A stretch of DNA of 64,000 nt. It comes from a virus. Taxonomy: Duplodnaviria; Caudoviricetes. The translations under genes and the position numbers were made by a program. This document shows, piece by piece, positions 22,701 through 63,884 of the stretch; the first letter of the stretch is position 1, and each line of letters starts with the position of its first letter. The stretch covers positions 3,061 through 67,060 of the IMG/VR virus record IMGVR_UViG_3300014775_001868; one strand, 5' to 3'. The notes under the pieces were generated by a model. It did not search any database and was not told the DNA's origin. It worked only from the letters and a program-made list of their open reading frames with translations.

Positions 22701-25700
22701 TAGAGGGGGCTTTTTTGTTCTTAATCAATTAGGATCTGGTTTAGGTAGAATAAAAAATGCCATTGTAGGAAGAGCAGATAAATTAAATTATGATGTAGTA
22801 ACTGTAGGAGAAATAGCACAATTTAAAGAAGCTCTTTTAAAAAGTTTAGATAAAGAAGGAGAAGCTTCTAGTTCTACTACTTTAAGATTAGCTGGAATAT
22901 TTAGTGCAGATAGTTTAATACAAACTTTAAATATAGTAGAAGATGAAAAACCTATTGCTAAAAAAACAAGCATGTTTGTTTTACAAGCAACATCACAAAT
23001 GTTTCAATTCTTTTTAGGTTTTAGTACTGAAACTATATTTAGAAATGAAGAAGTTAAAAAAGTAATAGGACTTAAATTTGGTTTTCAAGGACCTCCTGTT
23101 ACAGGTATCAATTATTTATTTGAAGCTCCTATTTCTTTTATTCCAACTGGTTTAAAAGGAAAAGGTATTCTTAATGGTGATACATATTTTGTACAAAGAC
23201 AAGAAGGTATGGGATTATTACAATGGTCTCAAGCTCTTGGTGATTTTACTTTTCAAAGTTTAGTAGCTTTAAGTTTCATTTATGGGGTATCTGCGACAGT
23301 AGGACTTACAAGTGATTTTGCTAAAAGTATAAATAATAAAAATACAGGAATAATAAATGAAACTTTAGATGCAATAAGTATTTCATCTAGAAATGTTCAA
23401 AATATGGTTATGTCATTAACCAAAGCCGGAACACAAGGTTTAAGTTGGTTAGATACAACCGCTGATAATTTTTCTAATGCAGTTATAAGTTTTACTAAAT
23501 TACCTTATAAAACATATGAAGGTTTAAGAAATTCTGTATTAGCTAGAAATAATTTAAAAAATAATAATACAAAATTAAGAGGAAAATTCTTAAGAGGTAT
23601 TGTTTTAGGATATTTATTATTTTCTGCTGTAGACAAAGGGCAAAATTTATTAAGTGATACTTTATTTGGAGAAGAAAGTCCAGGGGCTTTAAATATAGCT
23701 AAATATATTCTCCCTACTACTGCTGCTACCGCTGGTATAAGTTATTCTTTCTTAAAAGATAATAATGCTATAGTTAATACTCTTAAAACTAAAAGCACTA
23801 TTTTTAATAACTCTTTTAATAAGTTAGCAAAGATTGCAAATACTATTGATAGTACAGCTATAACTAGAAATATAAAAATAAGAAAATCAACAGCTTTTAT
23901 TGTTGCTACTTCTGTAATATATAACTGGTTTAAAACCGATTCTAATTTTGGTTTTGCTGTTGATATGGATACTGATACTACTCAAAGAATAATGAGTGTA
24001 GGATTAGCAGGTGGTTTAACAGGAACTGCTTTTGCTTTAGGTAGAAACTTAGCAGTAGAACCTGGAGATATATTAAATGCTTATTTAAAAACTCAAAGTT
24101 TAGAAGAAGTAACTAATAATGCAACTAGTTTTAATTTAAAAAAAATCAAACAAGAAATGTTAAAGGTAGCTAAACCTTTTACTAATGTAGTAGCAGAAGC
24201 TTATAAAAGTTATATTAATTATAAAACGACTCGTTATGCTGCAAATTATATAGAATTTTTAGATAGTTTAAATACTCCTAATGGAGTCTTAATATCTAAA
24301 GAATTAGATAAATATAAAATAAAAGAATTACAAGCTGGAGATACTAAATTTAAATATACAGAAGAAGATGGAGTTATAAAATTTACAGATGAAACAATAG
24401 ATTTTATTAAAGAGTCTAGAAAAAAAGCACAAATAATAGTTAATAAAAGAGCAGATCAACTTGTAGATTTTATTAGAAATGAAAGACAAGCTATAAATAC
24501 TGTAGCTTCGGGTAATAAAAAGAATATTAATTTATTAAGAGATGCCTTTGAAGATAAAGCATTTAGTAATTATTTAAGTCATAAAGGACTTAAAGGGAAA
24601 GGATTAATATTAGGTTTTGTAGGAGTAGCGGCGCTTACAACTATAACAACAGCGGTTGTAAATATTTATGGAGGTATAACCAAAAAAGGTTATATAGATG
24701 GTTCTAATAAAGATAATTTCTTTGGAGCTTTAGATGGTACACCTCTTGAATTTTTAGCAGATACTGTTCGTTTAATAACAGGTACTGATAGAAGTGTAAG
24801 TCCTTCTATATATGAAGGTGGACTTCAAGGAGAACAAATAGCTCAAAGTGTTAAATTATTAAAGAATACTGATAATGACACTAATACATTATTAAGAGCT
24901 ACTGAAGCTTTAATGACTCCTTTACTTATTAATGCTTCTAATGTTTTTATAACAACAGGATCTGTAGGTATAAGTATAAGAAGTGCTGAAGAAGGACCTA
25001 AAGTAACTACATATGCTCAATTTCAAACAGCAGGTTTTGATATATCTACTGCTACTTACGAATTAGTTAAAAAATATAATATTGGTTATGGTTATAAAAA
25101 TGCTAAAACTAATATGATAATTCAAAGAGAATTAAAGAAAATATCTAATGGAGTTCAATTAAATAATGATACTTTATTAGATTATGGAGCTGTAACATTA
25201 ACTAGAGTATCTGCTTATGTAGATCCTTTAGTTGGTAAAGAAAAAAGAAAAGTATCTAAAATATTAGAAACATATCAAACTGCTAATGTAACTTCAAGTC
25301 CAATTGTATCTATTATTTTAAAAAGTAGAATAAGAGATACAAAACAATTTGTTAATCAACCTTTAGAATCTATTATAGCGAGATCAACTTCAGTTACTGA
25401 TATATCTATTTATAATGTTTTATCTGAAAAAGTTGTAAGTGATTTAGCTTTAAGTAATGGAGTTGAATCATTCTTAACAGATGAAAATAGTAAAAGATTA
25501 GTTTTTATTCGTTTAGGATATCATTTAAAAAACGCATTTAATAAAGAAGCTAGATTAACTGCTTTATTTTTTAGTAATAAACAATTAAAAGCTACAGGAC
25601 CTTTAACAGAAGAAGCTATATCTAGTTTTGAATTACAAGTAGCAGAAAAGAATGAAGTTCAAAATGGATTTTTAAAAGTAGTATCAAGTCTATTTACTGA

Positions 25701-28380
25701 TTGGTTTTCTTTAGTTAATAATTTAACGAAATTTGCTGGCTTAGGTAGCCCCGCAACTTTCTTAATAATGAGTTTTACAACTTTAGGTTTATTATCAGTA
25801 GGATATGCTACTTTAAGTAAATTAACTAGTTTTAAAGGGGCTAGAGAATTTAGAATGTTAGACAATATGTTTAACATTAAAGGTGCTAATGAAACTGAAA
25901 GAATATTTTCTTTTAGTAGATTATTAACTGAAAATTCTAATAGAAATGGAGTTATATATATAGAAAATCAGGCTAATATATTTTCAAATCAATTATCAAA
26001 TCCTTTATTATCAATAGAATTAACTGAAGCTTATAGTTCTATTGGTATAGAGAAAAAAATACAATTAGGTATAAATATAGAAAAAAGTTTAAATAGTGTA
26101 TTTAGAATTGTAGATGATAGTAATCACACTTTATTAAGAAGTATTTATAATTTTGGTGATGAAGCTAAAATAGGTGAATTTTTTATATCTGATCCTGAGC
26201 TTTTAAATAACTTAAATAAACGTTTTAATATTAAAAATCAAACAACTGTCTTTTTAGAATTAGATGTATTTAAAACAAATGTTGTTCAAGTTTTAGATCA
26301 ATATTATGATTCTATTTTTGAAGCAATAGAAAAAGCAGAAGTTTTAATAGGAGAATCAAAAGTAACTTTAACAGAAGTAATAAAAATAGAAGAGTTAAAT
26401 ACAATAAGAACAGCTTTAAGGGATAATGCAGAAACTATTATAGAGACTTTCTTTACGCAAAAATTAACAAATCAGATAGAGATAGATAAACAAAAAATAG
26501 CAAAAGTAAATTTAGGTAAGAATCAAAAAGACACTATTTTAGATTTACTTTCAATATTATTTGATGATTATTTAGATGATGAACTATTAGCGATACAAAG
26601 ATATTTATATGTATTAAATCCTGCTGATGAAGGTATTATTAAAAATTTAACAAGAGCTTTAAGAACTATAGCAAGAGAAAATGGAGGTATTTTAAATGTA
26701 AAAAATAATCCATTTATGAAATCTATATTTACTGGTAGATCTGTTACAATTAGAGATTTAAATTTACCTGAAGATATTAAATTAAGAAGAACGCAAGAAC
26801 CATTTCAGAAAAGATTTAGAAAAGGATTAAATAAAACTTGGAAAGTAGCAGGTGGTGTATTTAATACTATTAATATAGGTGCTGATGTTATAGATACTTT
26901 TGGATTTTTATCTAGATATGGATATGCATCTTATGATGGAAGTTTCACCGAAGCTGAATTAGATTATTTAGCATTAGAAGCTGCTAATGCTCAAGTAGGA
27001 GCTATTCTATTTGCTAATATGATTAGTCTAACTTTTAAAGGTTATTATATACCACAGTTATTAAAACTTAGTACTAAAGCGCCTGTAATAGGTGGAGCTG
27101 CAAAAGGTATAGCTGGGGTTGTAAGTAATATAAGTAAAACTCTACAAGGTGTACCAGCACCGATAAAAGTAGGTGCTATATTATTAGGAGTAATAGGAAT
27201 AAGTGTAGCAGCAACTAGAAAAAATAAATATAATGAAAGTTTCTTAGATAAAAGTTTAAATGCATTAGAGAATACTTTTAGAACGATATCTAAAACAGTT
27301 TCACCTACTATAGCTAAAGCACAAAAATCAATTATCAATTTAATTGATAATCCTACTTGGAAAGATTTTGCTACAGGGGGTCTTTCTGGATTCGCTTTTG
27401 GTTTAACTTTAGCGACATTTTTAGCGGGAACTATAGCTGCTGCTGTTACTGCTCCTGTATGGGGTACTGCTTTAGCTATAATAGGTATTAGTACATTAGT
27501 CTTTGCTACTATTAATGTTACCCCTTTAGGTAAATTTATAAGTGATAGATTATTTGATTTTAATAGATGGGCTAGTAAAGTACCTATTCTTAATTTCTTT
27601 TTCACTTCAGAAGGATCTAGTTTATATTTATTAGATGATCATACTAGTGGTCCTATATTTTTCGCTTCATCTAGACAAGCAGTAGAAGCTACTATTGAAA
27701 AATATTATTCATTAGAAGATGATGTAGGAAATACCATAACTATGAATTATTTATTTGGACCTTCTTTAAATAATCAAAGAAATACATCAAGTAGTCAAGT
27801 TCCTGGATTAGAAAAAGGTCCTATACAAACAAATAATTCTAATATTGTAAATGCGATATTAATGTCTAGATCTAAATATTTTAGACAACAAATAGTAGGA
27901 ACTTCTATATATTTAAGAGTAATAGAAAATTATAAAAATCAAAATAAATTAAAAGAACAATTAATAAAAGATGCTTTAGATAAAGAAACTGCTATTAAAT
28001 TAAATAAAGAAGCTGAAAATCTTCGAGAAACAGATCAAAAAAATATAGCATCAATATTAACTAAACCTAATAAAGATTTTACAGATGAAGCTGTTATTAT
28101 TGCTTTAGGAGCTTCTGGTAATAATGATAATGAAATCCCTGATACTTCCAAAAGAACTGAAACAAGTATAATAGTAAGTAGAACAGATTTTCATAATCCT
28201 GTTTTAGAATTCAATAATGAATCTATTTCTAGACAAGCTTCAAGAGAGATGATAGTAGCTACTAAACTTGGAGTTTCTAAAGAAAATAATAAAATAAAAT
28301 TAAACGAAAGTATATCAACTAATAATGATTTATTATTAAGTGTAATACCTGAATATGTATCTTTTAGAGCTACTGTATAA
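19747..28380 (+). CDS. giant tape-measure-like/ejection protein with N-terminal thermonuclease (SNase)-like domain
   Basis: 2877 aa, Gly/Ala/Thr-rich helical character with several hydrophobic segments. Residues ~10-180 align by eye with staphylococcal nuclease (DADS, GVDAPE, QPEG, NSELVKNNAA, KGIYS). Confidence 0.6.
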   Translation: MSINIYGTNYGRIIYNDDADSFEVEINKQKINVQVMGVDAPEPPKPLDHRDFENYSLLRKLKVSLGQPEGQRSTEIGRKIISENGGFDNVRIDLSGVDSFNTYGAQIFLKGKDGWISYNSELVKNNAAYIIFESYFRDFVPDESVIEHFNEQLRNHSAGKGKGIYSSDARVPSFFRRGEDENLDFYKQSPSYSEYIRKKRFEESSIKNSKILAVFDRERNRSGFLISSRYTGSYFYNIALYNATQRKLGKEVHSFTSDGMATKAYFLSKASNNEDTTISGITKFILKTFDSSVQRPGLGNWLNEHVFLPAGMGRIYKEELGALGSLAGLVGRVLDQTVNFFSTNEFYRLHPELTLAPLDLQTTALEQERRTGFFETALPAVVGFGLTTIASLGTYFALEVPLGYFTADLTRESINYLLKEGFTPPASNSKFTSGIKSFFRASAIDAFHVFSSITDIQKEIEGLYGDVIDYSTTGTKTMNLPDYLMKGVSLSSFTNNFYRKTGAYLTETVILNFVNTFLNPYRPGSPAHKHFLNTQRELVEAIAKPIELQMEYTILDPKNPDPDKPKVFKLNKLEIDPNTLGYDRNVAIVRKMQDIMDLIPLNPLNWGIGSLNKGLGYIDDTKNIYTLGDVLNFEDLTLQFHNIFLDNRIIRRVNIRNRLLPATPFNILKQALYKPINYLLSVKDIIQADLARHQEINKIDGFGVRDRNIRNLKLNFKAAGLFNDNPLVSPSGNTSTKINVEKTINLTKDTSGDLIDNVIEFIVESEVQSYKVRETYKKYNPSIPGEVSYGNMKYYASSNQIKERNILKTARLRKQGKLTELVIDNLTFKRGIYSVAVGYLLIDSIFNPSKGAGLLEQVAVDYVLWGEGSPDYQANGLISGNVYWQLTATTATIATSIYVGTSRTHYTESVTTVKNLPVEKRNLLKDRIRTAIDANLLPKVDGNVYSIISKSGNDYDIKLNQDIAVKTPRKYGDVYSNILGTYIALRGGFFVLNQLGSGLGRIKNAIVGRADKLNYDVVTVGEIAQFKEALLKSLDKEGEASSSTTLRLAGIFSADSLIQTLNIVEDEKPIAKKTSMFVLQATSQMFQFFLGFSTETIFRNEEVKKVIGLKFGFQGPPVTGINYLFEAPISFIPTGLKGKGILNGDTYFVQRQEGMGLLQWSQALGDFTFQSLVALSFIYGVSATVGLTSDFAKSINNKNTGIINETLDAISISSRNVQNMVMSLTKAGTQGLSWLDTTADNFSNAVISFTKLPYKTYEGLRNSVLARNNLKNNNTKLRGKFLRGIVLGYLLFSAVDKGQNLLSDTLFGEESPGALNIAKYILPTTAATAGISYSFLKDNNAIVNTLKTKSTIFNNSFNKLAKIANTIDSTAITRNIKIRKSTAFIVATSVIYNWFKTDSNFGFAVDMDTDTTQRIMSVGLAGGLTGTAFALGRNLAVEPGDILNAYLKTQSLEEVTNNATSFNLKKIKQEMLKVAKPFTNVVAEAYKSYINYKTTRYAANYIEFLDSLNTPNGVLISKELDKYKIKELQAGDTKFKYTEEDGVIKFTDETIDFIKESRKKAQIIVNKRADQLVDFIRNERQAINTVASGNKKNINLLRDAFEDKAFSNYLSHKGLKGKGLILGFVGVAALTTITTAVVNIYGGITKKGYIDGSNKDNFFGALDGTPLEFLADTVRLITGTDRSVSPSIYEGGLQGEQIAQSVKLLKNTDNDTNTLLRATEALMTPLLINASNVFITTGSVGISIRSAEEGPKVTTYAQFQTAGFDISTATYELVKKYNIGYGYKNAKTNMIIQRELKKISNGVQLNNDTLLDYGAVTLTRVSAYVDPLVGKEKRKVSKILETYQTANVTSSPIVSIILKSRIRDTKQFVNQPLESIIARSTSVTDISIYNVLSEKVVSDLALSNGVESFLTDENSKRLVFIRLGYHLKNAFNKEARLTALFFSNKQLKATGPLTEEAISSFELQVAEKNEVQNGFLKVVSSLFTDWFSLVNNLTKFAGLGSPATFLIMSFTTLGLLSVGYATLSKLTSFKGAREFRMLDNMFNIKGANETERIFSFSRLLTENSNRNGVIYIENQANIFSNQLSNPLLSIELTEAYSSIGIEKKIQLGINIEKSLNSVFRIVDDSNHTLLRSIYNFGDEAKIGEFFISDPELLNNLNKRFNIKNQTTVFLELDVFKTNVVQVLDQYYDSIFEAIEKAEVLIGESKVTLTEVIKIEELNTIRTALRDNAETIIETFFTQKLTNQIEIDKQKIAKVNLGKNQKDTILDLLSILFDDYLDDELLAIQRYLYVLNPADEGIIKNLTRALRTIARENGGILNVKNNPFMKSIFTGRSVTIRDLNLPEDIKLRRTQEPFQKRFRKGLNKTWKVAGGVFNTINIGADVIDTFGFLSRYGYASYDGSFTEAELDYLALEAANAQVGAILFANMISLTFKGYYIPQLLKLSTKAPVIGGAAKGIAGVVSNISKTLQGVPAPIKVGAILLGVIGISVAATRKNKYNESFLDKSLNALENTFRTISKTVSPTIAKAQKSIINLIDNPTWKDFATGGLSGFAFGLTLATFLAGTIAAAVTAPVWGTALAIIGISTLVFATINVTPLGKFISDRLFDFNRWASKVPILNFFFTSEGSSLYLLDDHTSGPIFFASSRQAVEATIEKYYSLEDDVGNTITMNYLFGPSLNNQRNTSSSQVPGLEKGPIQTNNSNIVNAILMSRSKYFRQQIVGTSIYLRVIENYKNQNKLKEQLIKDALDKETAIKLNKEAENLRETDQKNIASILTKPNKDFTDEAVIIALGASGNNDNEIPDTSKRTETSIIVSRTDFHNPVLEFNNESISRQASREMIVATKLGVSKENNKIKLNESISTNNDLLLSVIPEYVSFRATV

Positions 28381-42337: not shown

Positions 42338-43378
42338 TTAATGTTTCCAAAATTGAGACCATTCTACTTCAACTTTTGAAGGTAATTCAAAATTTAATTT
42401 TTGTTCAAATATATAATTCAAAGAATTTTCCATTTCTTGTTTAACTACAGTACCATAATCTAAAGCCATTTCAAATTCTTCTAATTCAGTACCTATACAA
42501 CCATTAGGAATATTAGAAGTTGAATAACGAGATTTATCTAATACAGTTTTTGGTAATTTAAAATCAGGATCTTTTTTATCTGAAATAAAATCTAATTTTA
42601 TAAAGCCAGGAACTATTACATTAATTTCATCATGACTAAGATTACATATTTCAGCTTTTCTATTATTTTTTAAAAGATGTTTATATTTTTGATTTAAGGA
42701 TTCAAATTTATCTAAAGTTAAATTAACAAAAGCTAATTTAGTAGCATCGCTACCACAGCCTTGTATTTTAGCATTAATACCTTTTCTAGCGGCTGTATTT
42801 ATATCTCCTAAACCTTTAGCATTAGTTTCAAAACAATTAATAATTCTTCCCATAGGAGTATAAGAAGTTCTTGTTCTTTTAATTATTTCTACATTAACAT
42901 CTAACCATTCTTTTAATTTCCAAAAACCATTAGGATAACTAAAATATTTATCTAATAGATCTTGAGAATCTTCTACTGATATATTTAATTGTTGAGCGAT
43001 ACCTTCAGCACTACCCAAAAAAATAACTCTAAAATTTAAAGTTTTACCTTTAGGTCTAAATTCTTTTACTAAAGGATGAGATTTATTACATAACCAAGGA
43101 GTTTCCTCATATAATTTTTTTAAATCTGGATGAAAATTAGAAGCAGCTACAATATGAGAATCACATTTAGGATCTTCATATTCTTTTCCATTAGGATCTA
43201 TTGGTTTAGGTATTTCTCCTGTTTCATATTTATGTTGAAGTCTATAGATATTAGCTAATACTTCATCTTGACTACAAGCAGCTGCAATATAACTTTCCAT
43301 AGCACTATAATCAGCAGATACCCAAGTATATCCTTTAGGTGCTTGAAATATATGTCTTAAAGAAATATTAGTTTTCAT
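42338..43378 (-). CDS. polA: DNA polymerase family A, C-terminal (catalytic) part
   Basis: Motif A ADYSAME, DSH, motif B RPKGKTLNF, NAKIQGCGSD, motif C SHDE. Confidence 0.9.
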   Translation of the reverse strand: MKTNISLRHIFQAPKGYTWVSADYSAMESYIAAACSQDEVLANIYRLQHKYETGEIPKPIDPNGKEYEDPKCDSHIVAASNFHPDLKKLYEETPWLCNKSHPLVKEFRPKGKTLNFRVIFLGSAEGIAQQLNISVEDSQDLLDKYFSYPNGFWKLKEWLDVNVEIIKRTRTSYTPMGRIINCFETNAKGLGDINTAARKGINAKIQGCGSDATKLAFVNLTLDKFESLNQKYKHLLKNNRKAEICNLSHDEINVIVPGFIKLDFISDKKDPDFKLPKTVLDKSRYSTSNIPNGCIGTELEEFEMALDYGTVVKQEMENSLNYIFEQKLNFELPSKVEVEWSQFWKH

Positions 43379-44658
43379 AAAATTTTAGCATTACAATTAC
43401 AAAATTCTTCTTCTGTTATTTCTACAACTACATTTCTTTTTGCTAAAGATTGAGCATTAAATTTACTAGCATCTTCAGTTCCTGAAGAACTACTCATTCT
43501 ACCAGTACTAGCACCAATAGTATTAAAATTTGGATGAATACATCCTGAAATAGGATTAATTAATTTATCCCAATTTTTATCTACTAGTTTAGATAAATTT
43601 TTATATAAAATAATATTAGAAATTAATTCTTTTTTTTTTGTATTATCTTCTAATAAATTTAATAAAGAAGAAAAAGTTTCAGCGGAAGTATCTTCAATTT
43701 CTAAAAGATCTTCTGTATCAAGATTTTTAAAATAATCATTAATCATTTTTTTTAATTGAATAGGACTATTCAAACTTTTAGTAACATCTTTTGATACAAA
43801 TTTAATTCTTTTAAAAATACCAGGTTTTATTTGAGTTACCTTTTGTCTTATTTCTAATTTAAATTCTTCTGCTATAGAAACTTTTAAATTTTCAATTTCA
43901 TTATTAGTATTAATCAATAATTTATCTAATACCGTTTTATTAATTGGCATTCCAATATATTCTACTTTAGATATAGCAGCCATTGTTTTTTGTTCTAATT
44001 CAAATATATCTTTCATATCATATTGATTAATTATTAAATCTTTTAAGATGTAATAACCTTCAATAAGATAACTTTTATGATTTGTATTTTTAATAGCACC
44101 TACATCTAAAGCAGCATATTGTAATTGAGATTCTGTTTTTGTTAAAGAAGCCCAATTGGAAGTACCTTCAGATTTGTCTAAATGAATCTTAAATAAATCT
44201 CTACAAAAAGCTTTATAATTAAATTTTCTAATTTTAGCGGCTTTAAATCCAGTAGCTCCAGATAAAAGCCATAAAGCTACTTGTACACAATGAGTATTTT
44301 TTAAAAAAATATTATAAGAAGACATTATTTGTTGAATATCAAATTTAGCATTAAATGCTATTACTAAATAATTAGAATTTATATATTCAACTATAGGTTT
44401 AGTTTTTTCAAAACCTAAGATACTAACATCTATAAGAATAGGAAAATCCCATTCTAGAGTCATTAATTGAATCATTTCTACTTTTGAAGTGTGTCTATCT
44501 AAAGCAGAACTATTTTCAATCTCTAAAATAGGAGCTGTTTCTGTATCTAATCCTATAATTTTTTCTTTTGTATTTTTTAATAAATCTAGAGTTTCTTTTA
44601 AATCTTTTTCATTTTTAACATAATTACATTTTATAAGATCAGTTTCTATTAAATTCAT
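43375..44658 (-). CDS. polA: DNA polymerase family A, N-terminal part (3'-5' exonuclease, thumb, start of palm)
   Basis: ExoI GLDTET, ExoII FNAKFD, ExoIII YAALDV; LNSPIQL; IHPNFNTIGASTGRMSS...NAQSL. Confidence 0.9.
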   Translation of the reverse strand: MNLIETDLIKCNYVKNEKDLKETLDLLKNTKEKIIGLDTETAPILEIENSSALDRHTSKVEMIQLMTLEWDFPILIDVSILGFEKTKPIVEYINSNYLVIAFNAKFDIQQIMSSYNIFLKNTHCVQVALWLLSGATGFKAAKIRKFNYKAFCRDLFKIHLDKSEGTSNWASLTKTESQLQYAALDVGAIKNTNHKSYLIEGYYILKDLIINQYDMKDIFELEQKTMAAISKVEYIGMPINKTVLDKLLINTNNEIENLKVSIAEEFKLEIRQKVTQIKPGIFKRIKFVSKDVTKSLNSPIQLKKMINDYFKNLDTEDLLEIEDTSAETFSSLLNLLEDNTKKKELISNIILYKNLSKLVDKNWDKLINPISGCIHPNFNTIGASTGRMSSSSGTEDASKFNAQSLAKRNVVVEITEEEFCNCNAKIL

Positions 44659-54190: not shown

Positions 54191-55318
54191 TTATAATTCA
54201 TCCCAACCTGGAATAGCAGAAGCCATATTATAATCAACGATAGTAGTTTCAAAGAAATTATCTTTATTAACAGATACGCCTTCACCAGACATATCTTTTA
54301 AATGAGGATAAGGATTTTTGACATTTTCATATATAGGACCAATATTAAATACAGATAATCTTAGATTAGCTAAATATTTTGTATATTGTCCAATAGTTTG
54401 AGGTGTTATACCTAATATTTTATTATTTATAGTAGTAGACATAAATATAATTTCTTTTTCTACAGCTTCTTTAATCATTTCTATTAAAATAGGATAACCA
54501 TTTTCTATTTTTTCTTCTTTAATATAATGTTTAATTATTTTTTCATATAAAGCAACATGTAAATTTTCATCTATATTTATTTTCTTTATAACTTTTTCAG
54601 TACCAATCATAAGATTTCTAGAAGATAAAGTGTAAAAGAAAATAAAAGAATTATAAAAATAAATAGCTTCTAAAATATAATTAGCACATAAAGCTTTAAA
54701 GAAACTTTCTGGAGTTTGTTTATCTTGAAAGTCTTGATACCAATGACCTATATACAAAGTTCTTTCATATAAAGGTTTATAATTTTTAAATTTATTATAA
54801 GCTTTATCTTTTCGTTCATCGCTATCAAATATAGTATTTAAAATATATTGATAAGATTGAGAGTGGATTTCTTCAAAGAATGCTTGAGTAGCAAAAGCTG
54901 TTACTACTTCTGATGCTGTAAAATAACCACTAAAATTAGCTGAAATGTTACAAGTTTGTATTGAATCTAAAAAAATAAGAAAAGATAAAATAATTTCATA
55001 GACTTCTTTTTCATCAGATGTTAAAACATTGTTATAACATTCTTTATCCATAGTAATGTCAATCTTTTCTGGTCTCCAGAAATTATCTAACATTACTGTA
55101 TTTATAGTATAAATATCTTTATATTTAATTCTATTTAATTGAATTAAATTAGTAGTAGGAGCACCAATTAATCTTTTTTGAGTATCATCTCCATCTGGAT
55201 TAAATATTTTTCTTTTTTTAACTTTAGGGGTAATTTCATTAATCATAATATTTAACAATTTAATAATTATAAAAAGGAAGTATAAAAGGGAGTATATATA
55301 ATATTCTCTCTTTTTCAT
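54191..55318 (-). CDS. nrdB: ribonucleotide reductase class I beta subunit
   Basis: FWRPE, FLDSIQ, EEIHSQSY (radical Tyr), LEAIYFYNSF, DENLH, FFE. The true start is possibly the internal Met (MINEIT). Confidence 0.95.
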   Translation of the reverse strand: MKKREYYIYSLLYFLFIIIKLLNIMINEITPKVKKRKIFNPDGDDTQKRLIGAPTTNLIQLNRIKYKDIYTINTVMLDNFWRPEKIDITMDKECYNNVLTSDEKEVYEIILSFLIFLDSIQTCNISANFSGYFTASEVVTAFATQAFFEEIHSQSYQYILNTIFDSDERKDKAYNKFKNYKPLYERTLYIGHWYQDFQDKQTPESFFKALCANYILEAIYFYNSFIFFYTLSSRNLMIGTEKVIKKINIDENLHVALYEKIIKHYIKEEKIENGYPILIEMIKEAVEKEIIFMSTTINNKILGITPQTIGQYTKYLANLRLSVFNIGPIYENVKNPYPHLKDMSGEGVSVNKDNFFETTIVDYNMASAIPGWDEL

Positions 55319-55324
55319 ATATAG

Positions 55325-57517
55325 TTAAGAACTACACATAGCACAATCAGCTTCAGTAACAGCTTTGGTTCTTATATAATATAAAGTTTTACCACCATTT
55401 CTCCATAAATCAAAGATACATTCTTTAATATAAGGAGCTGTTACATCTGGATTATTTAAATCAAATGCTAATTCAAAAGAGATACCAGTATCAATATAAG
55501 GTTGAATCAATTTAGTCATAATATTAACTAAATCTTTCTGTGGGAAAGATAAATTAGATTGATAATAATAGATTCTATCTTCTATATAATAAGGCATAAT
55601 AGGGGCTCTATTTGAAGATACATCTCTACTAAAAATAGAATAAGGAGGAAATATAGAAGCTGTACAACCTTGTAATAAACTAGTAGAAGTAGTTGGCATT
55701 AAAGCAGTAACTTGAGAATTTCTAATACCACTTTTCAATAATCTTTCTTTTAATTGTATCCATTTATTAGGATATTTAGAATTTTTTTCAAACCAACTTA
55801 TATCTTTACCTATTAATTTACCTTGAGCCCATAATGAATTTTCATAAGCTTCAAAAGGTTTTAAACCTTTTTCACATAATTCAATAGAAGCTTCAGTACA
55901 ACTATAACCAAAAGTTTCAAATAATTCAGCTATAATTTCTTTTCCAGTATTATAATTTTTCCTATGAAAAGCTAAATAATCTGCTAAACCTAAAACACCT
56001 ACTCCAATAGTTCTATATTTATCATTATGTTTTTTACCTAATTCTGTAGGTACTTCAGTTATATTTATTAAAGCATCTACAAAATATACTGCTAATTTAG
56101 CTATTGCCATTACTTCTTCTAAAGTAGTTGTTCTAGATAAATTAACAGCAGCTAAATTACAAACATGTATAAGTTCATCTGCTATTGTATTACTAAATGA
56201 TTCTACACAAAGATTAGCATTTTTAATCATGCCATCTAATTTATTAGGATTAACTTTATTAGCATTATCAATAAAGAAAATATAAGGTAATCCAGTCTCA
56301 ATTTGTATTTGCATTATACGCACAAATAATGAATGTGCATTTAACACTTTAACCATTTTTAAATTATCAGCATGAGCTTTCAAAAAAGTTAAAGCTTCAT
56401 CTAATTTTTCTCCCCATAAATTAGGAAGATCAATATTATAAATTTCTTTTACTTCATGAGGACAGAACACATACCAATTTTCTTTTTTTTCTACAGCCCT
56501 CATAAATTTATCACAAGCTATAACTTGAGGAAAAATATCAAAACTTTTATTTCTAAGGTCACCTTCTTCTGTTTGAATTTCTATAAATTCTTCAATATCA
56601 TAATGCCAAGTACTGTTAGAAACAGTAATAGCGCCTTTTCTAGCTCCTAATTGATTACAAGAAACAGAAGAATCATTAATTAATTTAATCCAAGGTGTAA
56701 CACCATTAGAACGTCCATAATAACCTTGAATCGAAGAACCTCTAGCTCTTATAGAAGATACATCTATACCTACACCACCACCATTTTTAGAAATAAAAGC
56801 GGCTCTTTTTAAATTATCATAAATGGAATCTAAAGAATCATCCATTACTAAAGTAAAACAAGAACTTAAATTTCCTTTAGGTCTTCTTAAATTTAAAAGG
56901 ATTGGTGTAGCAGCTGATAATTTTAATGTACTAAAAGCTGTATAAAATTGTTTATATAATTTAATTCCTATATTTTTTTCTATTTCTAACCCCGCAATAA
57001 TACTAATAGTTAAAAATAATTCTTGTGGTAATTCTAAAGGCATTAAATATTTCTTTTCTAATTGTTGGGCTCCAGCATAATCATAAAGAAAATCTCTTTG
57101 AATATCGAATCCAACTTCATTAAAAATTTCTTTAATTTTTTTCTTTGTTGCTAATTCAAATATATCTATATATTTATTTTCCCTAATCATCATTTCTAAA
57201 AAAGAAATATAGCCTTCTGCGGTTCCATATTCTATATCTTCTCTTTTTAAGAATGCATTCTTCCAAATAGATTGCATTAATAATTTACCAGCTACTTTTC
57301 TCCAACTAGGTTCTTCTAAACTAATAAAAGATTTAGCATGATAGATTAAATTATTATGAATGTCACTTGTTTTTACTCCATCAGTTAATATAGTATCTAA
57401 AGAAGATTCTAATCTTATTGGATTTGCATTTTCTTTTTCACAAGCCCACTCTACTACTTTTCTTATTTTTTGAAGATCATATTCTTCTTTAGAGCCATTC
57501 TTTTTGGTTACTAGCAT
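55325..57517 (-). CDS. nrdA: ribonucleotide reductase class I alpha subunit with ATP cone
   Basis: ATP cone VTKKNG; ATPIL, LSSC, GGGVG, NLCVE, CNL, GVGVLG, MPTTSTS, LYY, C-terminal CAMC. Confidence 0.96.
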   Translation of the reverse strand: MLVTKKNGSKEEYDLQKIRKVVEWACEKENANPIRLESSLDTILTDGVKTSDIHNNLIYHAKSFISLEEPSWRKVAGKLLMQSIWKNAFLKREDIEYGTAEGYISFLEMMIRENKYIDIFELATKKKIKEIFNEVGFDIQRDFLYDYAGAQQLEKKYLMPLELPQELFLTISIIAGLEIEKNIGIKLYKQFYTAFSTLKLSAATPILLNLRRPKGNLSSCFTLVMDDSLDSIYDNLKRAAFISKNGGGVGIDVSSIRARGSSIQGYYGRSNGVTPWIKLINDSSVSCNQLGARKGAITVSNSTWHYDIEEFIEIQTEEGDLRNKSFDIFPQVIACDKFMRAVEKKENWYVFCPHEVKEIYNIDLPNLWGEKLDEALTFLKAHADNLKMVKVLNAHSLFVRIMQIQIETGLPYIFFIDNANKVNPNKLDGMIKNANLCVESFSNTIADELIHVCNLAAVNLSRTTTLEEVMAIAKLAVYFVDALINITEVPTELGKKHNDKYRTIGVGVLGLADYLAFHRKNYNTGKEIIAELFETFGYSCTEASIELCEKGLKPFEAYENSLWAQGKLIGKDISWFEKNSKYPNKWIQLKERLLKSGIRNSQVTALMPTTSTSLLQGCTASIFPPYSIFSRDVSSNRAPIMPYYIEDRIYYYQSNLSFPQKDLVNIMTKLIQPYIDTGISFELAFDLNNPDVTAPYIKECIFDLWRNGGKTLYYIRTKAVTEADCAMCSS

Positions 57518-57660
57518 CTTTACAGGTTTATCCTTTTCAAAAATTAAATTATAAGTTTAAAAAATTTATCATATATTTTCTTTTCTATTTTAGGCAACTA
57601 AATATTAAAAAAGAGAGAGAACTGACTATCTCTTTTCTATTAGAAATATTAATAAAAGAT

Positions 57661-57969
57661 TTACATATAATCTTTTATTTTTTCTTTAAAAGATTCTATG
57701 AAAGCTTGTCTATCACTGTTTTTCAAGAGATTAGAAAGACTAAATTTAATGGTATAAAATAAACCTATAAGTGCTAAGAAATCATCTAAGAAAGGGATAG
57801 CATGAATAACAGCGATAGTAGTAATTAAAACTTGTAAAGATACAAGAACTAAAATGATATAAAAAGTTTGCTTGATTTTAATACTTTTGATAAAAGAAGA
57901 AACAGAAGCTAAATATTTTTTATATTCATCAAAAATATCTTCAGTTTGATTTTCTTTAGTATTTTCCAT
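57661..57969 (-). CDS. curT: CAAD/CURT1-family thylakoid curvature membrane protein
   Basis: VSLQVLITTIAVIHAIPFLDDFLALIGLFYTIKFSLSNLLKNSDRQAF matches the CAAD consensus ISVKILIAVLDAINDIPLL..LQLIG.GYT.WF..RYL.KA..R.EL. Confidence 0.82.
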   Translation of the reverse strand: MENTKENQTEDIFDEYKKYLASVSSFIKSIKIKQTFYIILVLVSLQVLITTIAVIHAIPFLDDFLALIGLFYTIKFSLSNLLKNSDRQAFIESFKEKIKDYM

Positions 57970-58031
57970 TTTTTAATTAGTTAAATTTAATTTAATATAA
58001 AAACAAAAGAAATAAATTCTTTTTTTTTGAT

Positions 58032-59594
58032 TTAATTACGATCAAAGAATTGTTCTCTATTAGTAACTTCTACTGAGGGACCTTTAATAGAAGGAAATAA
58101 AAGATTTTTATAAGATTCAGATAATAATCTATAATTAATATGTCCGCCTGGTCTTGAACGTAATTTATAAAAATAATTCATAGTTTTAAAATTGAAACCC
58201 ATTTCAGTATAAGTTTCATAACCATGAGGTAACAAATGTTTTATCCATTCAATTACAGTTAAATTTTGTAATTCTTCTTTTCTTATATCTAAATAATTAA
58301 GAATATTATAATGTAATTCTTTTATTCTTTTTAATAAAGAAATAGCTTGATCTTGTAATTCAAAATCTTTATAATATAAAGCTTGAATAAAATTATATTT
58401 TATATCTAAGAAATAATAATCTTCTAATAAAGGACTAAATCTAGAGATAGATCTATGTCTATTAAAATCTTTTAAAGAACCTATATCTAATTTACTACAA
58501 ATAGTATATTGAGAAAAATCAGCTATATTATTTATTTCATTATGATGATTACAATTATTATTTATAATACTTTCAATAAGAGATAAAGATATATCTTTTA
58601 AAGGCCAAGTTTCAAAAGAATAATCTAATAAAAGAGAAAGATATCTATCTAATAAATTTTTATTAATAGTTTTATATAATTTACTACTATTTTTATATTC
58701 AGATCCAACATATTCAAATTCATCAAAGTTAGGATTTTGCATTAATAAAAATTCTCTAACTTGAATAAAGGTATCCCTAATATGATATTTAGGATCACTA
58801 TGTCTAATAAGAGTAGGAGCTTCAGGTATATAACCTAATTCATTTAATTCTTCACAGCCCGCTAATAATTTTAATAATATTAATCCTATTCTTCTATTTA
58901 TATATTCATTAGAACCTCTTAATTCAGATATAACTCTACTCCATAAGCGAGCATTAGTATTTATTAAACCATTAGTGGTACAACCTATAGGTAAAAAATG
59001 TCTAGCACAATCTAATGCTCTTTTAGCTAAACCTGTTTTTTCTTTTTTTGTTTCAGGTTGAAACATTATATTTAATCTATTAGTATAAATATCAATAGAT
59101 TTTTTATATAAATCCATCCAAGAATTAAGAATATTTACATATTCTTCTTGTAATTTAGAATTTAAATTTAAAACTTTAGGTTCTACATAATTCCAATCAT
59201 CAAAAGTAATATATCTAGAACTATTTTCTTGACCCGCTAATACTGGAATTTGATAAAATAATTTCATCATATTTATCATAGGAATATTTTCAAAGAATAC
59301 AAATATTCCTGAAGCCATATCTCCCACTGAAGCATGTCCATATCCATGAAATATAGCTTCCATTTTTTTATTAGCATCTATATTTTTTTGATAAATAGAA
59401 TCTACTATTTGTTCTAAAGGTTTATTATCTCTAGATAATCGGGCTCCAATATAAGCTAATTGAGCTGATCTACTTTGATTTTGTATTGTTAAAATACAAT
59501 TAATTTTAATTCCTGTTTTTTTATCAGTTATAGAAGCAATTCCATATTCAGGATCATATGAAAAATTTAAGAGAGAATCTTTAATATCTAACAT
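58032..59594 (-). CDS. thyX: flavin-dependent thymidylate synthase, tandem two-domain type
   Basis: GHASVGD, QENSSRY and ARHFLP...TNAR in the N-half; FNRHRS, HLLP and LRSRPGGH in the C-half. Confidence 0.88.
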   Translation of the reverse strand: MLDIKDSLLNFSYDPEYGIASITDKKTGIKINCILTIQNQSRSAQLAYIGARLSRDNKPLEQIVDSIYQKNIDANKKMEAIFHGYGHASVGDMASGIFVFFENIPMINMMKLFYQIPVLAGQENSSRYITFDDWNYVEPKVLNLNSKLQEEYVNILNSWMDLYKKSIDIYTNRLNIMFQPETKKEKTGLAKRALDCARHFLPIGCTTNGLINTNARLWSRVISELRGSNEYINRRIGLILLKLLAGCEELNELGYIPEAPTLIRHSDPKYHIRDTFIQVREFLLMQNPNFDEFEYVGSEYKNSSKLYKTINKNLLDRYLSLLLDYSFETWPLKDISLSLIESIINNNCNHHNEINNIADFSQYTICSKLDIGSLKDFNRHRSISRFSPLLEDYYFLDIKYNFIQALYYKDFELQDQAISLLKRIKELHYNILNYLDIRKEELQNLTVIEWIKHLLPHGYETYTEMGFNFKTMNYFYKLRSRPGGHINYRLLSESYKNLLFPSIKGPSVEVTNREQFFDRN

Positions 59595-59615
59595 AATTAA
59601 ATCGATTTTTAATAT

Positions 59616-59661
59616 AAAAAAAAATCCAACTTTTTATTTAAATTATAAAAGTTGGATTTTT
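59616..59661. terminator. terminator closing the ubiquitin-like cassette
   Basis: Perfect 15-bp stem AAAAATCCAACTTTT/AAAAGTTGGATTTTT; the A run at 59616-24 gives a U tail on the - strand. Confidence 0.75.
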
Positions 59662-59681
59662 AATATTATTGATAATTAAAC

Positions 59682-60428
59682 TTATATAATAGTAGGTATT
59701 TCTTTAATTTTAATTAAAGTTCCTGTAGGAGTTCTTTTTCCTATTAAATTAAATCCTACATAATTCATAAAGGATTTATCTAAAAGTACTTGAGTAACTT
59801 GAGCTAAAGTAGCACTAGCAGCCATCATATTTGTAGCTAATAATTGGGGTGCATTAACACTATTATAACTACAACTACCAGGATTTAAAGATGGATTAGC
59901 ATTTACTAATTGTGGATATAATTTTAAAGGAGATGGTGTAATTTCTTGATTTTTATCTTTTAACCAACTAATAACTTGACCATCTAATTCAGCATTACCT
60001 GGACTCATAAATAATACCCATTTATTTTGAGATTCTATTGCTTCAATAATTTCTTTTCTAGCATGATCATTATCTACAGCCGCTATACATAAAGTCTTAC
60101 TTCTACGTCCACTTCTTGTATTTAATAACATATAATAATCATTTTTCTTTATATAATTATTGATCGTATTGATAGAAAAATTCTTTTTAATAATTTCTTT
60201 TTCAAATTGTTCAATAATTTTATCTTTTATATATTCAACTTTATATTTAGAAACACCCTCATTTTCAAAACCTCTTTCTATATTTTTATCTTCAATAATA
60301 TCCCCATCAATCAAATTGATTTCTAAATTATTAGGAATAGATTCATTATATAAAAATAATCTAATTAAATTAGTAATTAGATTTGATCCCGTTCCACCTA
60401 AACCAATAATATCTACATGTGTGAACAT
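59682..60428 (-). CDS. ThiF/E1-like activating enzyme (PRTRC ThiF-like)
   Basis: IIGLGGTGS, IDGDIIEDKNIER, AVDNDHAR, PGN..DGQV, candidate catalytic Cys in GSCS, QLLATNMMAA. Confidence 0.9.
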   Translation of the reverse strand: MFTHVDIIGLGGTGSNLITNLIRLFLYNESIPNNLEINLIDGDIIEDKNIERGFENEGVSKYKVEYIKDKIIEQFEKEIIKKNFSINTINNYIKKNDYYMLLNTRSGRRSKTLCIAAVDNDHARKEIIEAIESQNKWVLFMSPGNAELDGQVISWLKDKNQEITPSPLKLYPQLVNANPSLNPGSCSYNSVNAPQLLATNMMAASATLAQVTQVLLDKSFMNYVGFNLIGKRTPTGTLIKIKEIPTII

Positions 60429-61255
60429 TATACTAACTCCTTAAAAAAATCTGAATTATAATAATAATTTAAATTGTGTGGTAAATATATATTTAAAAAA
60501 TCATTTGTATTAAAATTATTTTTTCCATTTACTTTAGTTATAAAATTATATACAAAATTTTTATTAAAACTATAATGTAAATTATTTACATAATTGGGTA
60601 TATCAATACTTATATTTAAAGTTTTTTTATAAAAATCTATTATTTCGTTTAAATGATATAAATTTGTATTTAATACATCAAAAGGTTTTGATCGATCAAA
60701 AAAAAGATATTGATAAAAATCATATATTCTACAATCTTTATAATCAGTATTAAACGGACTATTTAAAATTTTGTTATATATAAATAAATGATTATTAGGA
60801 TCATTAATATAACCTAAACAAAAAGAACCACTATAATCAGTATTAGGTATATTATTTAATAATAAAATTTTATTAGTTTTAGGATCTTCAATAAAGATTT
60901 TAATTTTAGTATTTGTAATATATAACCAATGTTTTGGTAATTTTAAATTAAATTTTAATAAATAATTTTCATCTACTAAATCAAAATCAAAATTACTAAA
61001 ATAATAATAATAGTAATTGCCTCCATATTCAAAACCATAAGATTCTAAATCAACTATTTCAGTAATTTCTTCATCATCTTCTACTTCTATATATGCCTCA
61101 TAATCATCTTCATTCTCATTTCTGACTAAAAAAGTCATAGGATAAATAGTAGGTTCAAATTCATAAAAAAAAGAAAAATGACCATCAATGTAAGTCATTT
61201 TTCTTTTAGAACATAAATTAGAAGGTATTAAATTAATTTTTATTAAATCTTCCAT
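60428..61255 (-). CDS. prokaryotic E2-like protein (family D-like)
   Basis: IPNTDYSGSFCLG...NSPFNTD, i.e. the PN...G.hC.G...S.FN.D signature. Confidence 0.7.
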   Translation of the reverse strand: MEDLIKINLIPSNLCSKRKMTYIDGHFSFFYEFEPTIYPMTFLVRNENEDDYEAYIEVEDDEEITEIVDLESYGFEYGGNYYYYYFSNFDFDLVDENYLLKFNLKLPKHWLYITNTKIKIFIEDPKTNKILLLNNIPNTDYSGSFCLGYINDPNNHLFIYNKILNSPFNTDYKDCRIYDFYQYLFFDRSKPFDVLNTNLYHLNEIIDFYKKTLNISIDIPNYVNNLHYSFNKNFVYNFITKVNGKNNFNTNDFLNIYLPHNLNYYYNSDFFKELV

Positions 61256-61260
61256 TTAAT

Positions 61261-62292
61261 TTATAAAAAATAAAAAGGGTCTCTATAATCTTTATTAATT
61301 TTTCCATTTAATCTTTCTTTTAAATTTTCTTTAAATAAATTAACTATTTTATTTTCATCTAATAAATTTGTATCTATATTTAAATCTTCACAAAAAATAA
61401 TCAAATCTGAAATTGTATCTTGAATATATTTTTCAAGTTGAATATTTTTATCTGTTTTTTGATTAACGTTTGGTTTAAAAGAACTAAAGAAAAAGTCTTC
61501 TGAAGGTTCATCAGAATCGCCGGAATATACAAGAGTATTAAATTCATCAAAATAAAAGTCATCATAAAATTCATCTGAATAAAAAGAAGTGTGATGACTT
61601 GTATAATTATTTTTAAATTTAATTTTTTGAGGTAATCTATTTATAAATCTAGATACTTGTTTAATACAATTAGGATGAAAAGAGGTATCACTTTCAGTAT
61701 CCAAATCTATTAATTCAGAAGCTTCTACATAATTTCTTTCTTTATCCCAAACAATAGAACCTGTAATAACATAAGTTCTTTTTTTTAGATTAATATTACT
61801 AACTAAGATATGTACTCCTTCTTTATTTAATTCTTCTTTATCATCAGTACCTGAAAAATTACTAAGAGTTAATTTTCCATGACTATGACTACTACCAAAG
61901 TTTATCCAATTTTGAAGCTCTAAATCTTTTTCTGGATTAAAAGTTTCTCCTGTCAATATATCAATTTGATTTGTTTGATCTTGATGAGTAACAGAACCAG
62001 TAGTTACTTGTTGTTTAGGTACACCTACTTTCCATTCATTAGTATTTTTTTCTTTATAAAATTCAACTCTCACTTCGCTATCAAATTCTTTAGCAAAATG
62101 AAAATATAAATCAACAATAGCTGACCATAAATCAGCTGGAATTTTTTTTCTATTATCTAAGAATTTAATATCTCTTAAATTTTTTTTAGGAACTTGAGGA
62201 TTTAAATTAACAGTTTTTTTAAATACTTGACATAAATCTCCTATATTTTTAATAGCTACAAAAGTGGTATCAGTAGTAAAAACATTATTCAT
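61261..62292 (-). CDS. JAB/MPN metalloprotease (Prok-JAB, PRTRC protein A-like)
   Basis: KIPADLW, SEV (catalytic Glu), VPKQQVT..SV, GSSHSH...FSGTDD. Confidence 0.88.
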   Translation of the reverse strand: MNNVFTTDTTFVAIKNIGDLCQVFKKTVNLNPQVPKKNLRDIKFLDNRKKIPADLWSAIVDLYFHFAKEFDSEVRVEFYKEKNTNEWKVGVPKQQVTTGSVTHQDQTNQIDILTGETFNPEKDLELQNWINFGSSHSHGKLTLSNFSGTDDKEELNKEGVHILVSNINLKKRTYVITGSIVWDKERNYVEASELIDLDTESDTSFHPNCIKQVSRFINRLPQKIKFKNNYTSHHTSFYSDEFYDDFYFDEFNTLVYSGDSDEPSEDFFFSSFKPNVNQKTDKNIQLEKYIQDTISDLIIFCEDLNIDTNLLDENKIVNLFKENLKERLNGKINKDYRDPFYFL

Positions 62293-63514
62293 TATCAGGT
62301 AACCTCTCTAATTTAAAATAAAATTCATCTTCTTCTTTAAAAACGTTAATAGGTATTCTTTTATTTTTTTCTATATCTTTAAAATAAAAATCATTTTCAT
62401 CGATATGAATATAAGAATTATATTCTTTAGAAACACCTACAATATTTTTATCTAATATTTTTCCTTTAGTAATATTTGAATAATCATCATTTAACCAATT
62501 AATTATTTCTGTTTTTATTATTTCACAAAGTTCTTCATGTTCAGAAAAAGAGGCTTTACTATTATAAATAGTTCTAAAATCATCTCCATAGCTTTTTTTT
62601 ATACTAACATCTGCATTTACATTCCCACTTAAATCATCATTAAAAAAGCTTTCCCAGAAATAATTATAAATAAGATGTCCGCTAAAACTAGAATAATTAC
62701 CTAAACATATAGCACCATTTTTATAACAATTAGGAGTAGGTATATAAAAATTATTATAATTTTTATCAAAAGCTAAAATACTATACTTACTATTAATTAA
62801 ATTTTCTATAAATATATGTTGTTCTAAATGAATATCTTTTTTTCTAGTATTAGAATCATGACCTTTTGGACATTGACGATCATAAAAAATAGGAACACCT
62901 GAACAGAAATTTCTTTTATATGAAGCTCTTTTATATTCTTTAATAGTTTCTCTATATAATCTTTTTAATTGAGTAATATCATAAGATAATTGAGTTAAAT
63001 AATTTCTTATAAAATTTAATTTAGTTTTATCATTATCTTTTGCTTTTACATCTATAAGAATTAAATTTTTAATAATAGAAGCTTCTGATAATTTTTTTAT
63101 TATAGATTCTAAATAAATTTCAATTTTTTCTTTAGAGATATTTCGTTTTTGTTCTATCGCTGCTTTAGAAAAAATAGGAAGCGGCTTTAAAAGATTATAT
63201 AAATGAGATATTAATAATGAAGAGACTTGTATATCTAATGATTCAAATTCTTTTTGTAAATCATAAATATTTAATTTTATACAAGGGATTTTAGTTTCTT
63301 TATGATAAAAATAATTAAATTTAGATAAATCTATTTTAAAATTAAAAGGATAATCAAGATTAAGTTCACATTTATTGCAAGGAATTATAGAATCCGAATA
63401 GAATTTAATTTCTTTAGAAAAAGATCCAAATTTATGAATAAAGAATTTATCTTCTATAGCATAAGTATCTATTCTTTCTGTTGGAAATAATTTAAATTTA
63501 CTAATTATAGACAT
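62285..63514 (-). CDS. prokaryotic E2-like protein (family D-like) with long N-terminal extension
   Basis: YIPTPNCYKNGAICLG...FWESFFNDDL in the C-terminal third. Confidence 0.75.
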   Translation of the reverse strand: MSIISKFKLFPTERIDTYAIEDKFFIHKFGSFSKEIKFYSDSIIPCNKCELNLDYPFNFKIDLSKFNYFYHKETKIPCIKLNIYDLQKEFESLDIQVSSLLISHLYNLLKPLPIFSKAAIEQKRNISKEKIEIYLESIIKKLSEASIIKNLILIDVKAKDNDKTKLNFIRNYLTQLSYDITQLKRLYRETIKEYKRASYKRNFCSGVPIFYDRQCPKGHDSNTRKKDIHLEQHIFIENLINSKYSILAFDKNYNNFYIPTPNCYKNGAICLGNYSSFSGHLIYNYFWESFFNDDLSGNVNADVSIKKSYGDDFRTIYNSKASFSEHEELCEIIKTEIINWLNDDYSNITKGKILDKNIVGVSKEYNSYIHIDENDFYFKDIEKNKRIPINVFKEEDEFYFKLERLPDNE

Positions 63515-63537
63515 TTTTATTAACTATAAATTATAAT

Positions 63538-63571
63538 AAAAAAGAGAAATATATATTTTATATTCCTCTTT
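63538..63571 (-). terminator. attenuating terminator/stabilising hairpin between Ubl and E2
   Basis: The - strand reads AAAGAGGAATATA-aaata-TATATTTCTCTTT (13 bp, one G.U pair) followed by more T. Confidence 0.55.
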
Positions 63572-63590
63572 CAAGTTTAAGAATTTAATA

Positions 63591-63884
63591 TTAACCTTTA
63601 TCACCCATATTAGTTAGAATATTATAAGTAACTCCAGCTTCAGCGATAGTATCACCTGGAATAACAATATAATTACCATCTTCATATTTACGATAGGTAG
63701 TAATAGTAGATGCATTAATACCTAAAGTATCTTCATTTTCTTGAAAGAGTTCAGCTACTGTTTGTCCTTCCTCAAAAGGAACTTGAGTTTTACTAACAAT
63801 TTCAAGAAATACCGTATCATTATCATTAAGATCGTTGTCAACAGATTGATTAAGTTGAGAAGCTAATTGATCAAAAATACTCAT
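63591..63884 (-). CDS. ubiquitin-like (beta-grasp) protein, Prok_Ub/PRTRC protein C-like
   Basis: 97 aa; GQTVAELF helix; ends ...YNILTNMGDKG-stop; heads the E2-JAB-E2-E1 cluster. Confidence 0.75.
   Translation of the reverse strand: MSIFDQLASQLNQSVDNDLNDNDTVFLEIVSKTQVPFEEGQTVAELFQENEDTLGINASTITTYRKYEDGNYIVIPGDTIAEAGVTYNILTNMGDKG

Follow-up and report, generated by a model that had tools for sequence, protein, structure and literature searches.

A gene on the minus strand of an uncultured phage fragment (57661–57969, stop codon included) encodes a protein of 102 aa, P0001, which sequence tests identify as a true, free-standing member of the CAAD/CurT/CURT1 family (Pfam PF14159). CurT and CURT1 are the membrane proteins that bend the photosynthetic membranes of cyanobacteria and chloroplasts. 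The phage protein probably acts as a CurT-type hairpin in the thylakoid of a cyanobacterial host and would keep or reshape membrane curvature during infection, and this points to a direct action of some cyanophages on the architecture of thylakoids. All positions refer to the window, that is, the whole 64-kb stretch of DNA that was analyzed. The window belongs to a 67,060-bp IMG/VR record of a tailed phage, a fragment estimated by CheckV to be ~40% complete.

Family assignment and architecture of the phage protein

An earlier note had read the gene as a phage-encoded CurT and had suggested an HMM search as a check. The protein matched the Pfam CAAD model with an E value of 1e-16 and 61 bits (cut-off 30.7), the match spanning residues 31–100, and the same model searched on the DNA gave an E value of 1.2e-17. 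CAAD was the sole significant Pfam family; the note had allowed that the model might not match at all or that holins might match best, and neither was found. No PHROG family and no holin family (Pfam and PHROGs) matched the protein, and NCBIfam contains no family for the CAAD phage proteins. A match to Pfam GP41 (E = 0.013, under its cut-off) was discarded as a bias of helical and transmembrane (TM) composition. A profile search of the PDB, where the CAAD family is without a solved structure, found no relative and returned only chance matches to gp41 (E values of at least 0.02). Fold searches with the protein in BFVD and structure searches in the ESM Atlas found no match.

The PF14159 model exceeded its cut-off in one of 14 control genomes, that of Synechococcus elongatus, the sole cyanobacterium among the controls, and in 135 of the 301 genomes sampled from the GTDB phylum Cyanobacteriota. 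The non-carriers in this phylum, many of them with small genomes, are presumably largely non-photosynthetic. All six phage homologues scored above the cut-off (42–66 bits). In an alignment of 12 CAAD proteins, consisting of P0001 and 11 phage or cellular sequences, G69 and R87 occur in every sequence, and the conservation of P59, F76, and L81 reaches at least 90%; I58 and P59 are invariant among the phage homologues. The hallmark residues of the family, namely the loop Pro, the TM2 Gly, and the Phe, Leu, and Arg after TM2, are thus all present in the phage protein. Since the match to PF14159 begins at position 13 of the model, the segment before TM1 appears to have diverged.

According to the ORF list, the gene starts with ATG at 57969 and ends with TAA at 57663–57661, and no ORF of 40 aa or longer overlaps it on the opposite strand. 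The start codon is supported by the N-terminus, MEN/MEQ/MET...ENQT, which is common to the nearest homologues. The motifs quoted in the earlier note were all located (IHAIPFL at residues 55–61, LIGLFYT at 67–73, and LLKNSDRQAF at 81–90), and the architecture described there, an amphipathic N-terminal helix followed by a two-TM hairpin and a C-terminal helix, was borne out by hydropathy, moment analysis, and AlphaFold2. The hydropathy profile displayed one unbroken hydrophobic region divided by the loop AIPFLDD into TM1 (residues 35–56) and TM2 (63–79), and the amphipathic moment peaked at residues 10–20, 77–88, and 90–100. The AlphaFold2 model, calculated from a 12-sequence alignment, has four helices (residues 8–29, 32–57, 61–81, and 84–101) with a mean pLDDT of 79.

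The predicted N-terminal cytoplasmic helix (residues 8–29; 57883–57948, minus strand, as are all the following segments) is partly amphipathic, with a hydrophobic moment of 0.60 at residues 10–20, and carries the basic stretch KSIKIK at its end, ahead of TM1. The first TM helix (57802–57867) is an uncharged hydrophobic stretch covered by the modeled helix 32–57 with a pLDDT of 84–93. It is followed by the short acidic loop AIPFLD (residues 57–62; 57784–57801), which contains the I-P motif of the family, and by the second TM helix (57733–57783), which carries the conserved Gly69 and Phe76 and corresponds to the modeled helix 61–81. The C-terminal soluble or amphipathic helix (residues 84–101; 57667–57720), supported by the model and by the last two moment peaks, comes after NLLKNSDRQ, the stretch that holds the invariant Arg87. 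The outer boundaries of both TM helices carry Lys and Arg, whereas the loop between them is acidic and contains no basic residue. On the positive-inside rule, this distribution of charges predicts that both termini are cytoplasmic and that the loop faces the lumen (N-in/C-in). The soluble parts comprise only ~34 and 23 residues with no fused domain, and stop codons lie at both bounds of the frame. A CAAD domain fused to an aminoacyl-tRNA synthetase (aaRS) was considered and ruled out, as the ORF is free-standing with intergenic DNA on both sides; the phage protein shares with such synthetases the Pfam domain, which serves there as a thylakoid-anchoring hairpin, but has no catalytic domain.

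The same arrangement is found in cellular members of the family. CurT homologues have a four-helix layout, with an amphipathic N-terminal helix, a TM hairpin, and a C-terminal helix (PMC12462475). The phage protein resembles CurT of Synechocystis (slr0483) and Synechococcus elongatus and CURT1 of plants and algae in matching the same family model, in the four-helix layout and stand-alone form, and in the I-P loop, the TM2 Gly, and the Phe, Leu, and Arg after TM2. What sets it apart from cellular CurT is that it is encoded by a phage, has diverged in the segment before TM1, has an N-terminal part that is shorter than in most cellular proteins, and falls into a separate clade. The phage copies have 97–116 aa, whereas the cellular open frames mostly have 123–181 aa, and the identity of the phage proteins to cellular ones is 24–34%.

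The phage, its host, and the neighborhood of the gene

The phage context claimed in the earlier note was recovered. The contig carries structural genes (baseplate J, DUF4815 tail proteins, and a tail-collar protein), a terminase, and replication genes (a split family A DNA polymerase, a primase, helicases, a DnaX-like clamp loader, UDG, PhoH, and RecA), together with genes for a PD-(D/E)XK nuclease, NrdA, NrdB, a 520-aa ThyX, and a ThiF-like enzyme. No tRNA genes were found in the contig. The polymerase is split over two adjoining genes (42338–44658, minus strand) whose stop and start codons overlap, one encoding the exonuclease and the N-terminal part of the polymerase (427 aa) and the other the C-terminal part (346 aa). 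A 2877-aa ORF without a significant Pfam family (19747–28380, plus strand) lies after the terminase gene and a 265-aa gene, and a giant protein, either structural or ejected, may be its product.

The large terminase (TerL; 17102–18889, plus strand) was used as a lineage marker. Over 91% of its length, it was 44% identical to the terminases of the Microcystis phages Ma-LMM01 and MaMV, and it displayed 41% identity to that of Microcoleus phage My-WqHQDG, the next-best match being at ~21%. Among GenBank phages, the long ThyX showed 32% identity to the Ma-LMM01/MaMV proteins and 28% to the Microcoleus phage protein over ~76–78% of its length, and the only other match, to four Vibrio phages of 278–291 kb, covered about one third of its length. 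A 1435-aa tail protein aligned end to end with the Ma-LMM01-type protein (27%) and with that of the Microcoleus phage (32%). Judged from these identities, the phage is an uncultured myovirus and a distant relative of Microcystis phage Ma-LMM01. All isolates of the lineage defined by TerL, ThyX, and the tail protein infect cyanobacteria, so that a cyanobacterial host is likely even if the CAAD gene is disregarded. The host proposed in the earlier note, a cyanobacterium, therefore remains the most likely one and is supported by three markers other than the CAAD gene. As the CAAD family is confined to oxygenic phototrophs, the gene should in turn be a useful host marker for uncultured phages.

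Photosynthesis genes of the psbA, hli, and nblA types were not found on the fragment, and the nblA and hli models had no match on the 67-kb record. The GC content is 23.5% over the whole window, and GC3 is 7–15% in the coding genes. To our knowledge, a GC content of ~23% is lower than that of any known cyanobacterial genome, which bears on the host assignment. Among the CAAD-bearing relatives described below, the GC content is 30% in contig L004 and 32–37% in the other CAAD phage contigs.

The neighbors of the CAAD gene were placed as the earlier note had listed them, namely ThyX at 58032–59594, NrdA at 55325–57517, and NrdB at 54191–55318. The upstream gene, thyX (minus strand), ends 62 nt before the CAAD start codon, and its assignment was confirmed by Pfam Thy1 (5e-16) and phrog_36506 (2e-50). 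The encoded ThyX is unusually long, and the Thy1 match falls into two stretches, the best of them at residues 42–226. The downstream gene (minus strand, 730 aa) was taken from the ORF list and named NrdA by reading of the sequence, without a family search. A weak hairpin running into a U-run (57606–57639, minus strand; −11.7 kcal/mol, z = −1.9 versus shuffles) begins 22 nt past the CAAD stop codon; it is marginal, and it possibly marks the end of a transcription unit. A scan for consensus terminators called none, either at this hairpin or in the gap between thyX and the CAAD gene, and promoter-like sites were no commoner than in shuffled sequences. No RNA datasets were listed for the stretch from thyX through the CAAD gene to nrdA.

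Directly upstream of thyX lies a cassette (59682–63884, minus strand) encoding a Ubl-like protein of 97 aa, an E2-like protein of 409 aa with a weak Prok-E2_D match, a 343-aa product labeled JAB, a 275-aa protein, and a ThiF/E1-like enzyme (59682–60428, minus strand; Pfam ThiF, 1.8e-10). The counterpart in L004, a contig of 10.6 kb that carries the homologue P0004, occupies 3654–7601. The gene order of L004 (Ubl, E2, JAB, ThiF, ThyX, CAAD, a 77-aa gene, and NrdA) is that of the window. The identities between the two are 35% for Ubl, 29% for E2, 56% for JAB, 49% for ThiF, 41% for ThyX, ~29–31% for CAAD, and 42% for the partial NrdA. The same local order was also seen on the fragments L067 and L070. 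The order shared with L004, L067, and L070 indicates that the CAAD gene has held its position during a time in which the identity between the core enzymes fell to 40–56%.

Distribution, selection, and phylogeny of phage CAAD genes

A full HMMER scan of 1.8 billion representative sequences yielded only 15 proteins at E values of 1e-3 or lower, and a word-based protein search yielded only seven phage-type CAAD clusters. The nearest relatives of the protein are P0002 and P0003 (40–42% identity), followed by P0004 and then P0005. The gene for P0002 is located on contig L002, where it adjoins genes for an intein-bearing UvsW helicase, a gp44-type clamp loader, and an Mre11-like protein; the best matches of the clamp loader are to T4-like Synechococcus phages (45%). 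The UvsW-type helicase gene of L002 (320–2542) contains a Hint/homing-endonuclease (intein) domain. P0005 is encoded on contig L005 amid small early-type genes, a T4-type RNA ligase gene, and a gene for a 723-aa protein whose relatives are almost exclusively from cyanomyoviruses (33%). Since L002 and L005 are T4-like and the window is Ma-LMM01-like, phage CAAD genes are present in at least two unrelated, cyanobacteria-linked myovirus lineages. In the ESM Atlas, clusters of ~96-aa CAAD proteins with 87 and 81 members are labeled mostly viral, which agrees with a recurrence of CAAD genes in viral metagenomes and is taken only as a lead.

The phage copies are under purifying selection. Comparison of the CAAD genes of L004 and L067 revealed 30 synonymous and 35 non-synonymous differences (dN/dS = 0.21), and L005 differed from L006/L007 by six synonymous and no non-synonymous changes. 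The GC content (23%) and GC3 (15%) of the gene in the window are like those of its neighbors and of the phage background. On these sequence features, the gene is a retained auxiliary gene of a cyanophage and not a stray capture.

The phylogeny against cyanobacterial CurT that the earlier note had called for was calculated by maximum likelihood from 100 columns of the CAAD domain. The phage proteins formed a clade of their own and were nested in no sampled cyanobacterial clade. A quick tree united six phage proteins with an SH-aLRT support of 95, and a careful tree united all seven with moderate support (78/70). The phage clade falls outside two clades of picocyanobacterial paralogues and also outside the large clade formed by CurT of other cyanobacteria (98/94). 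The donor lineage of the phage genes is not nameable from this tree because of the long branches and few columns. The two paralogue clades of small-genome (pico)cyanobacteria (loci L015, L016, and L047–L061) are deeply separated; one consists of short stand-alone proteins with open frames of 123–167 aa, and in the other the CAAD domain is often at the C-terminus of open frames of 220–515 aa.

Searches of isolates were blank. With four CAAD queries, tblastn retrieved nothing from 50,697 GenBank phage records at E values up to 0.1 or 0.01; this method is weak for membrane domains of 70 aa at ~30% identity, and the blank result is therefore not proof of absence. With the PF14159 profile, no CAAD was found in the six isolates Ma-LMM01, MaMV-DH01, the Microcoleus phage, DSL-LC02, S-CREM2, and S-CAM3. 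Ma-LMM01 and MaMV (Fukuivirus) and My-WqHQDG, the closest isolates by TerL, ThyX, and the tail protein, thus differ from the present phage in having no CAAD by the Pfam profile, and their gene order around ThyX is also different. The nearest isolates being without it, the gene appears dispensable for these lineages, and phage CAAD belongs to the accessory genes of uncultured lineages. No confirmed relative emerged from pattern scans of IMG/VR with P0001–P0005, one CAAD alignment, and a ThyX alignment, and two scans of JGI metagenome contigs gave nothing. In a full-text literature search for CurT, CURT1, CAAD, or PF14159 together with phage or cyanophage, no phage-encoded member was described.

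Possible role in infection and competing explanations

We presume that the CAAD gene is transcribed together with the nucleotide-metabolism genes, thyX upstream and nrdAB downstream, because it lies so close to thyX with no called terminator between them and with the marginal hairpin after it. The protein would then enter the thylakoid membrane of the host as an N-in/C-in hairpin with the acidic loop on the lumenal side. There the N-terminal helix and the hairpin could serve as a wedge, either alone or in mixed oligomers with host CurT, and curved regions such as margins, biogenesis zones, or convergence zones would be maintained or reshaped during infection. Such an effect might keep photosystem repair and the energy supply running, or it might fold the thylakoids away and make room for virion assembly. 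The earlier note had likewise named support of photosystem biogenesis, space for assembly, and the tethering of proteins as possible functions. From its sequence, the phage protein could either promote or antagonize curvature.

Known auxiliary genes of cyanophages affect photosynthetic content, that is, reaction-centre proteins, photoprotection, electron carriers, and phycobilisome breakdown. The CAAD gene is, like psbA, hli, and nblA of Ma-LMM01, a thylakoid-associated gene of a host family situated among metabolic genes. The products of those genes function in the reaction centre, in photoprotection, and in phycobilisome degradation, whereas the phage CurT belongs to a membrane-shaping family. 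If the proposed role is true, phages also influence the shape of thylakoids, or else the CurT-linked way in which thylakoids are partitioned when the cell divides. Invagination of thylakoids in the course of cyanophage infection has been documented (PMC8523472, citing Sherman and Haselkorn 1970), and no phage effector responsible for it is named in the literature examined. A bolder and tentative proposal is that the phage-specific clade of minimal CurT proteins, exchanged between the unrelated Ma-LMM01-like and T4-like cyanomyovirus lineages, is a dedicated effector that resculpts thylakoids by co-assembling with or antagonizing host CurT and could cause the invagination seen since 1970. A minimal, naturally diverged CurT could also help to delimit the parts of the family that curvature and oligomerization require; mutants and knock-downs of curT are available in Synechocystis and S. 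elongatus.

Phages often block host division, and a phage CurT mimic might bind the divisome (FtsZ or its partners) or displace septal host CurT, so that the division of cells and thylakoids is blocked or misplaced. CurT of Synechocystis and Synechococcus is reported to bind FtsZ physically and to be required for symmetric division and thylakoid partitioning (PMC12462475), and the predicted structure of the phage protein keeps the full CurT layout. Against this, the N-terminal part of the phage protein is short and diverged, and the region of CurT that contacts FtsZ is left undefined in the literature examined. We regard interference with division as unlikely.

The hairpin might instead serve only as a tether, holding at the thylakoid some partner from phage or host to which the short soluble helices bind. 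CAAD domains tether aaRSs to thylakoids, and a membrane-anchored ValRS associates with the ATP synthase (PMC4893482); the CAAD gene is moreover part of a conserved block beside ThyX and the Ubl/E2/JAB/E1 cassette. The soluble parts of the phage protein are, however, short and carry no fused domain, and its neighbors are wholly different in the T4-like contigs, so that no constant partner gene is evident. A role as a mere anchor or scaffold consequently seems quite improbable. A function in lysis or exclusion, as a class II holin, an antiholin, or a superinfection-exclusion factor in the cytoplasmic membrane, is very unlikely. Class II holins have a similar size and two-TM topology, and a holin family appears among the ESM Atlas structures as a weak neighbor of P0005 (TM score 0.42), but the phage protein matched no holin family and conserves the specific CAAD motifs. 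Furthermore, no endolysin or lysin domain was found in the 64-kb window, and the gene is flanked by thyX and nrdA in two diverged phages and surrounded by small early-type genes in L005. The CurT-type function in the thylakoid is the explanation that we prefer.

That the gene is a piece of cellular DNA joined to a viral contig by faulty assembly, or a passenger in decay, is hardly credible despite the blank profile search of isolate relatives and the blank tblastn search of GenBank phages, given its phage-like GC and GC3, the phage genes on both sides on one strand, the synteny and purifying selection in other phage contigs, and the recovery of the locus from sequencing runs. A single contig in run X1, possibly from the source sample, covers the 4.4-kb stretch around the gene in full with six differences, and identical or near-identical pieces over part of the CAAD ORF were found in runs of two other studies, one aquatic and one marine. 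Among the matches listed, there were no differences within the CAAD ORF. DNA nearly identical to positions 55300–59700 of the window was thus present in aquatic and marine runs of three separate studies (2019, 2023, and 2024), which indicates that the virus is recurrent in nature.
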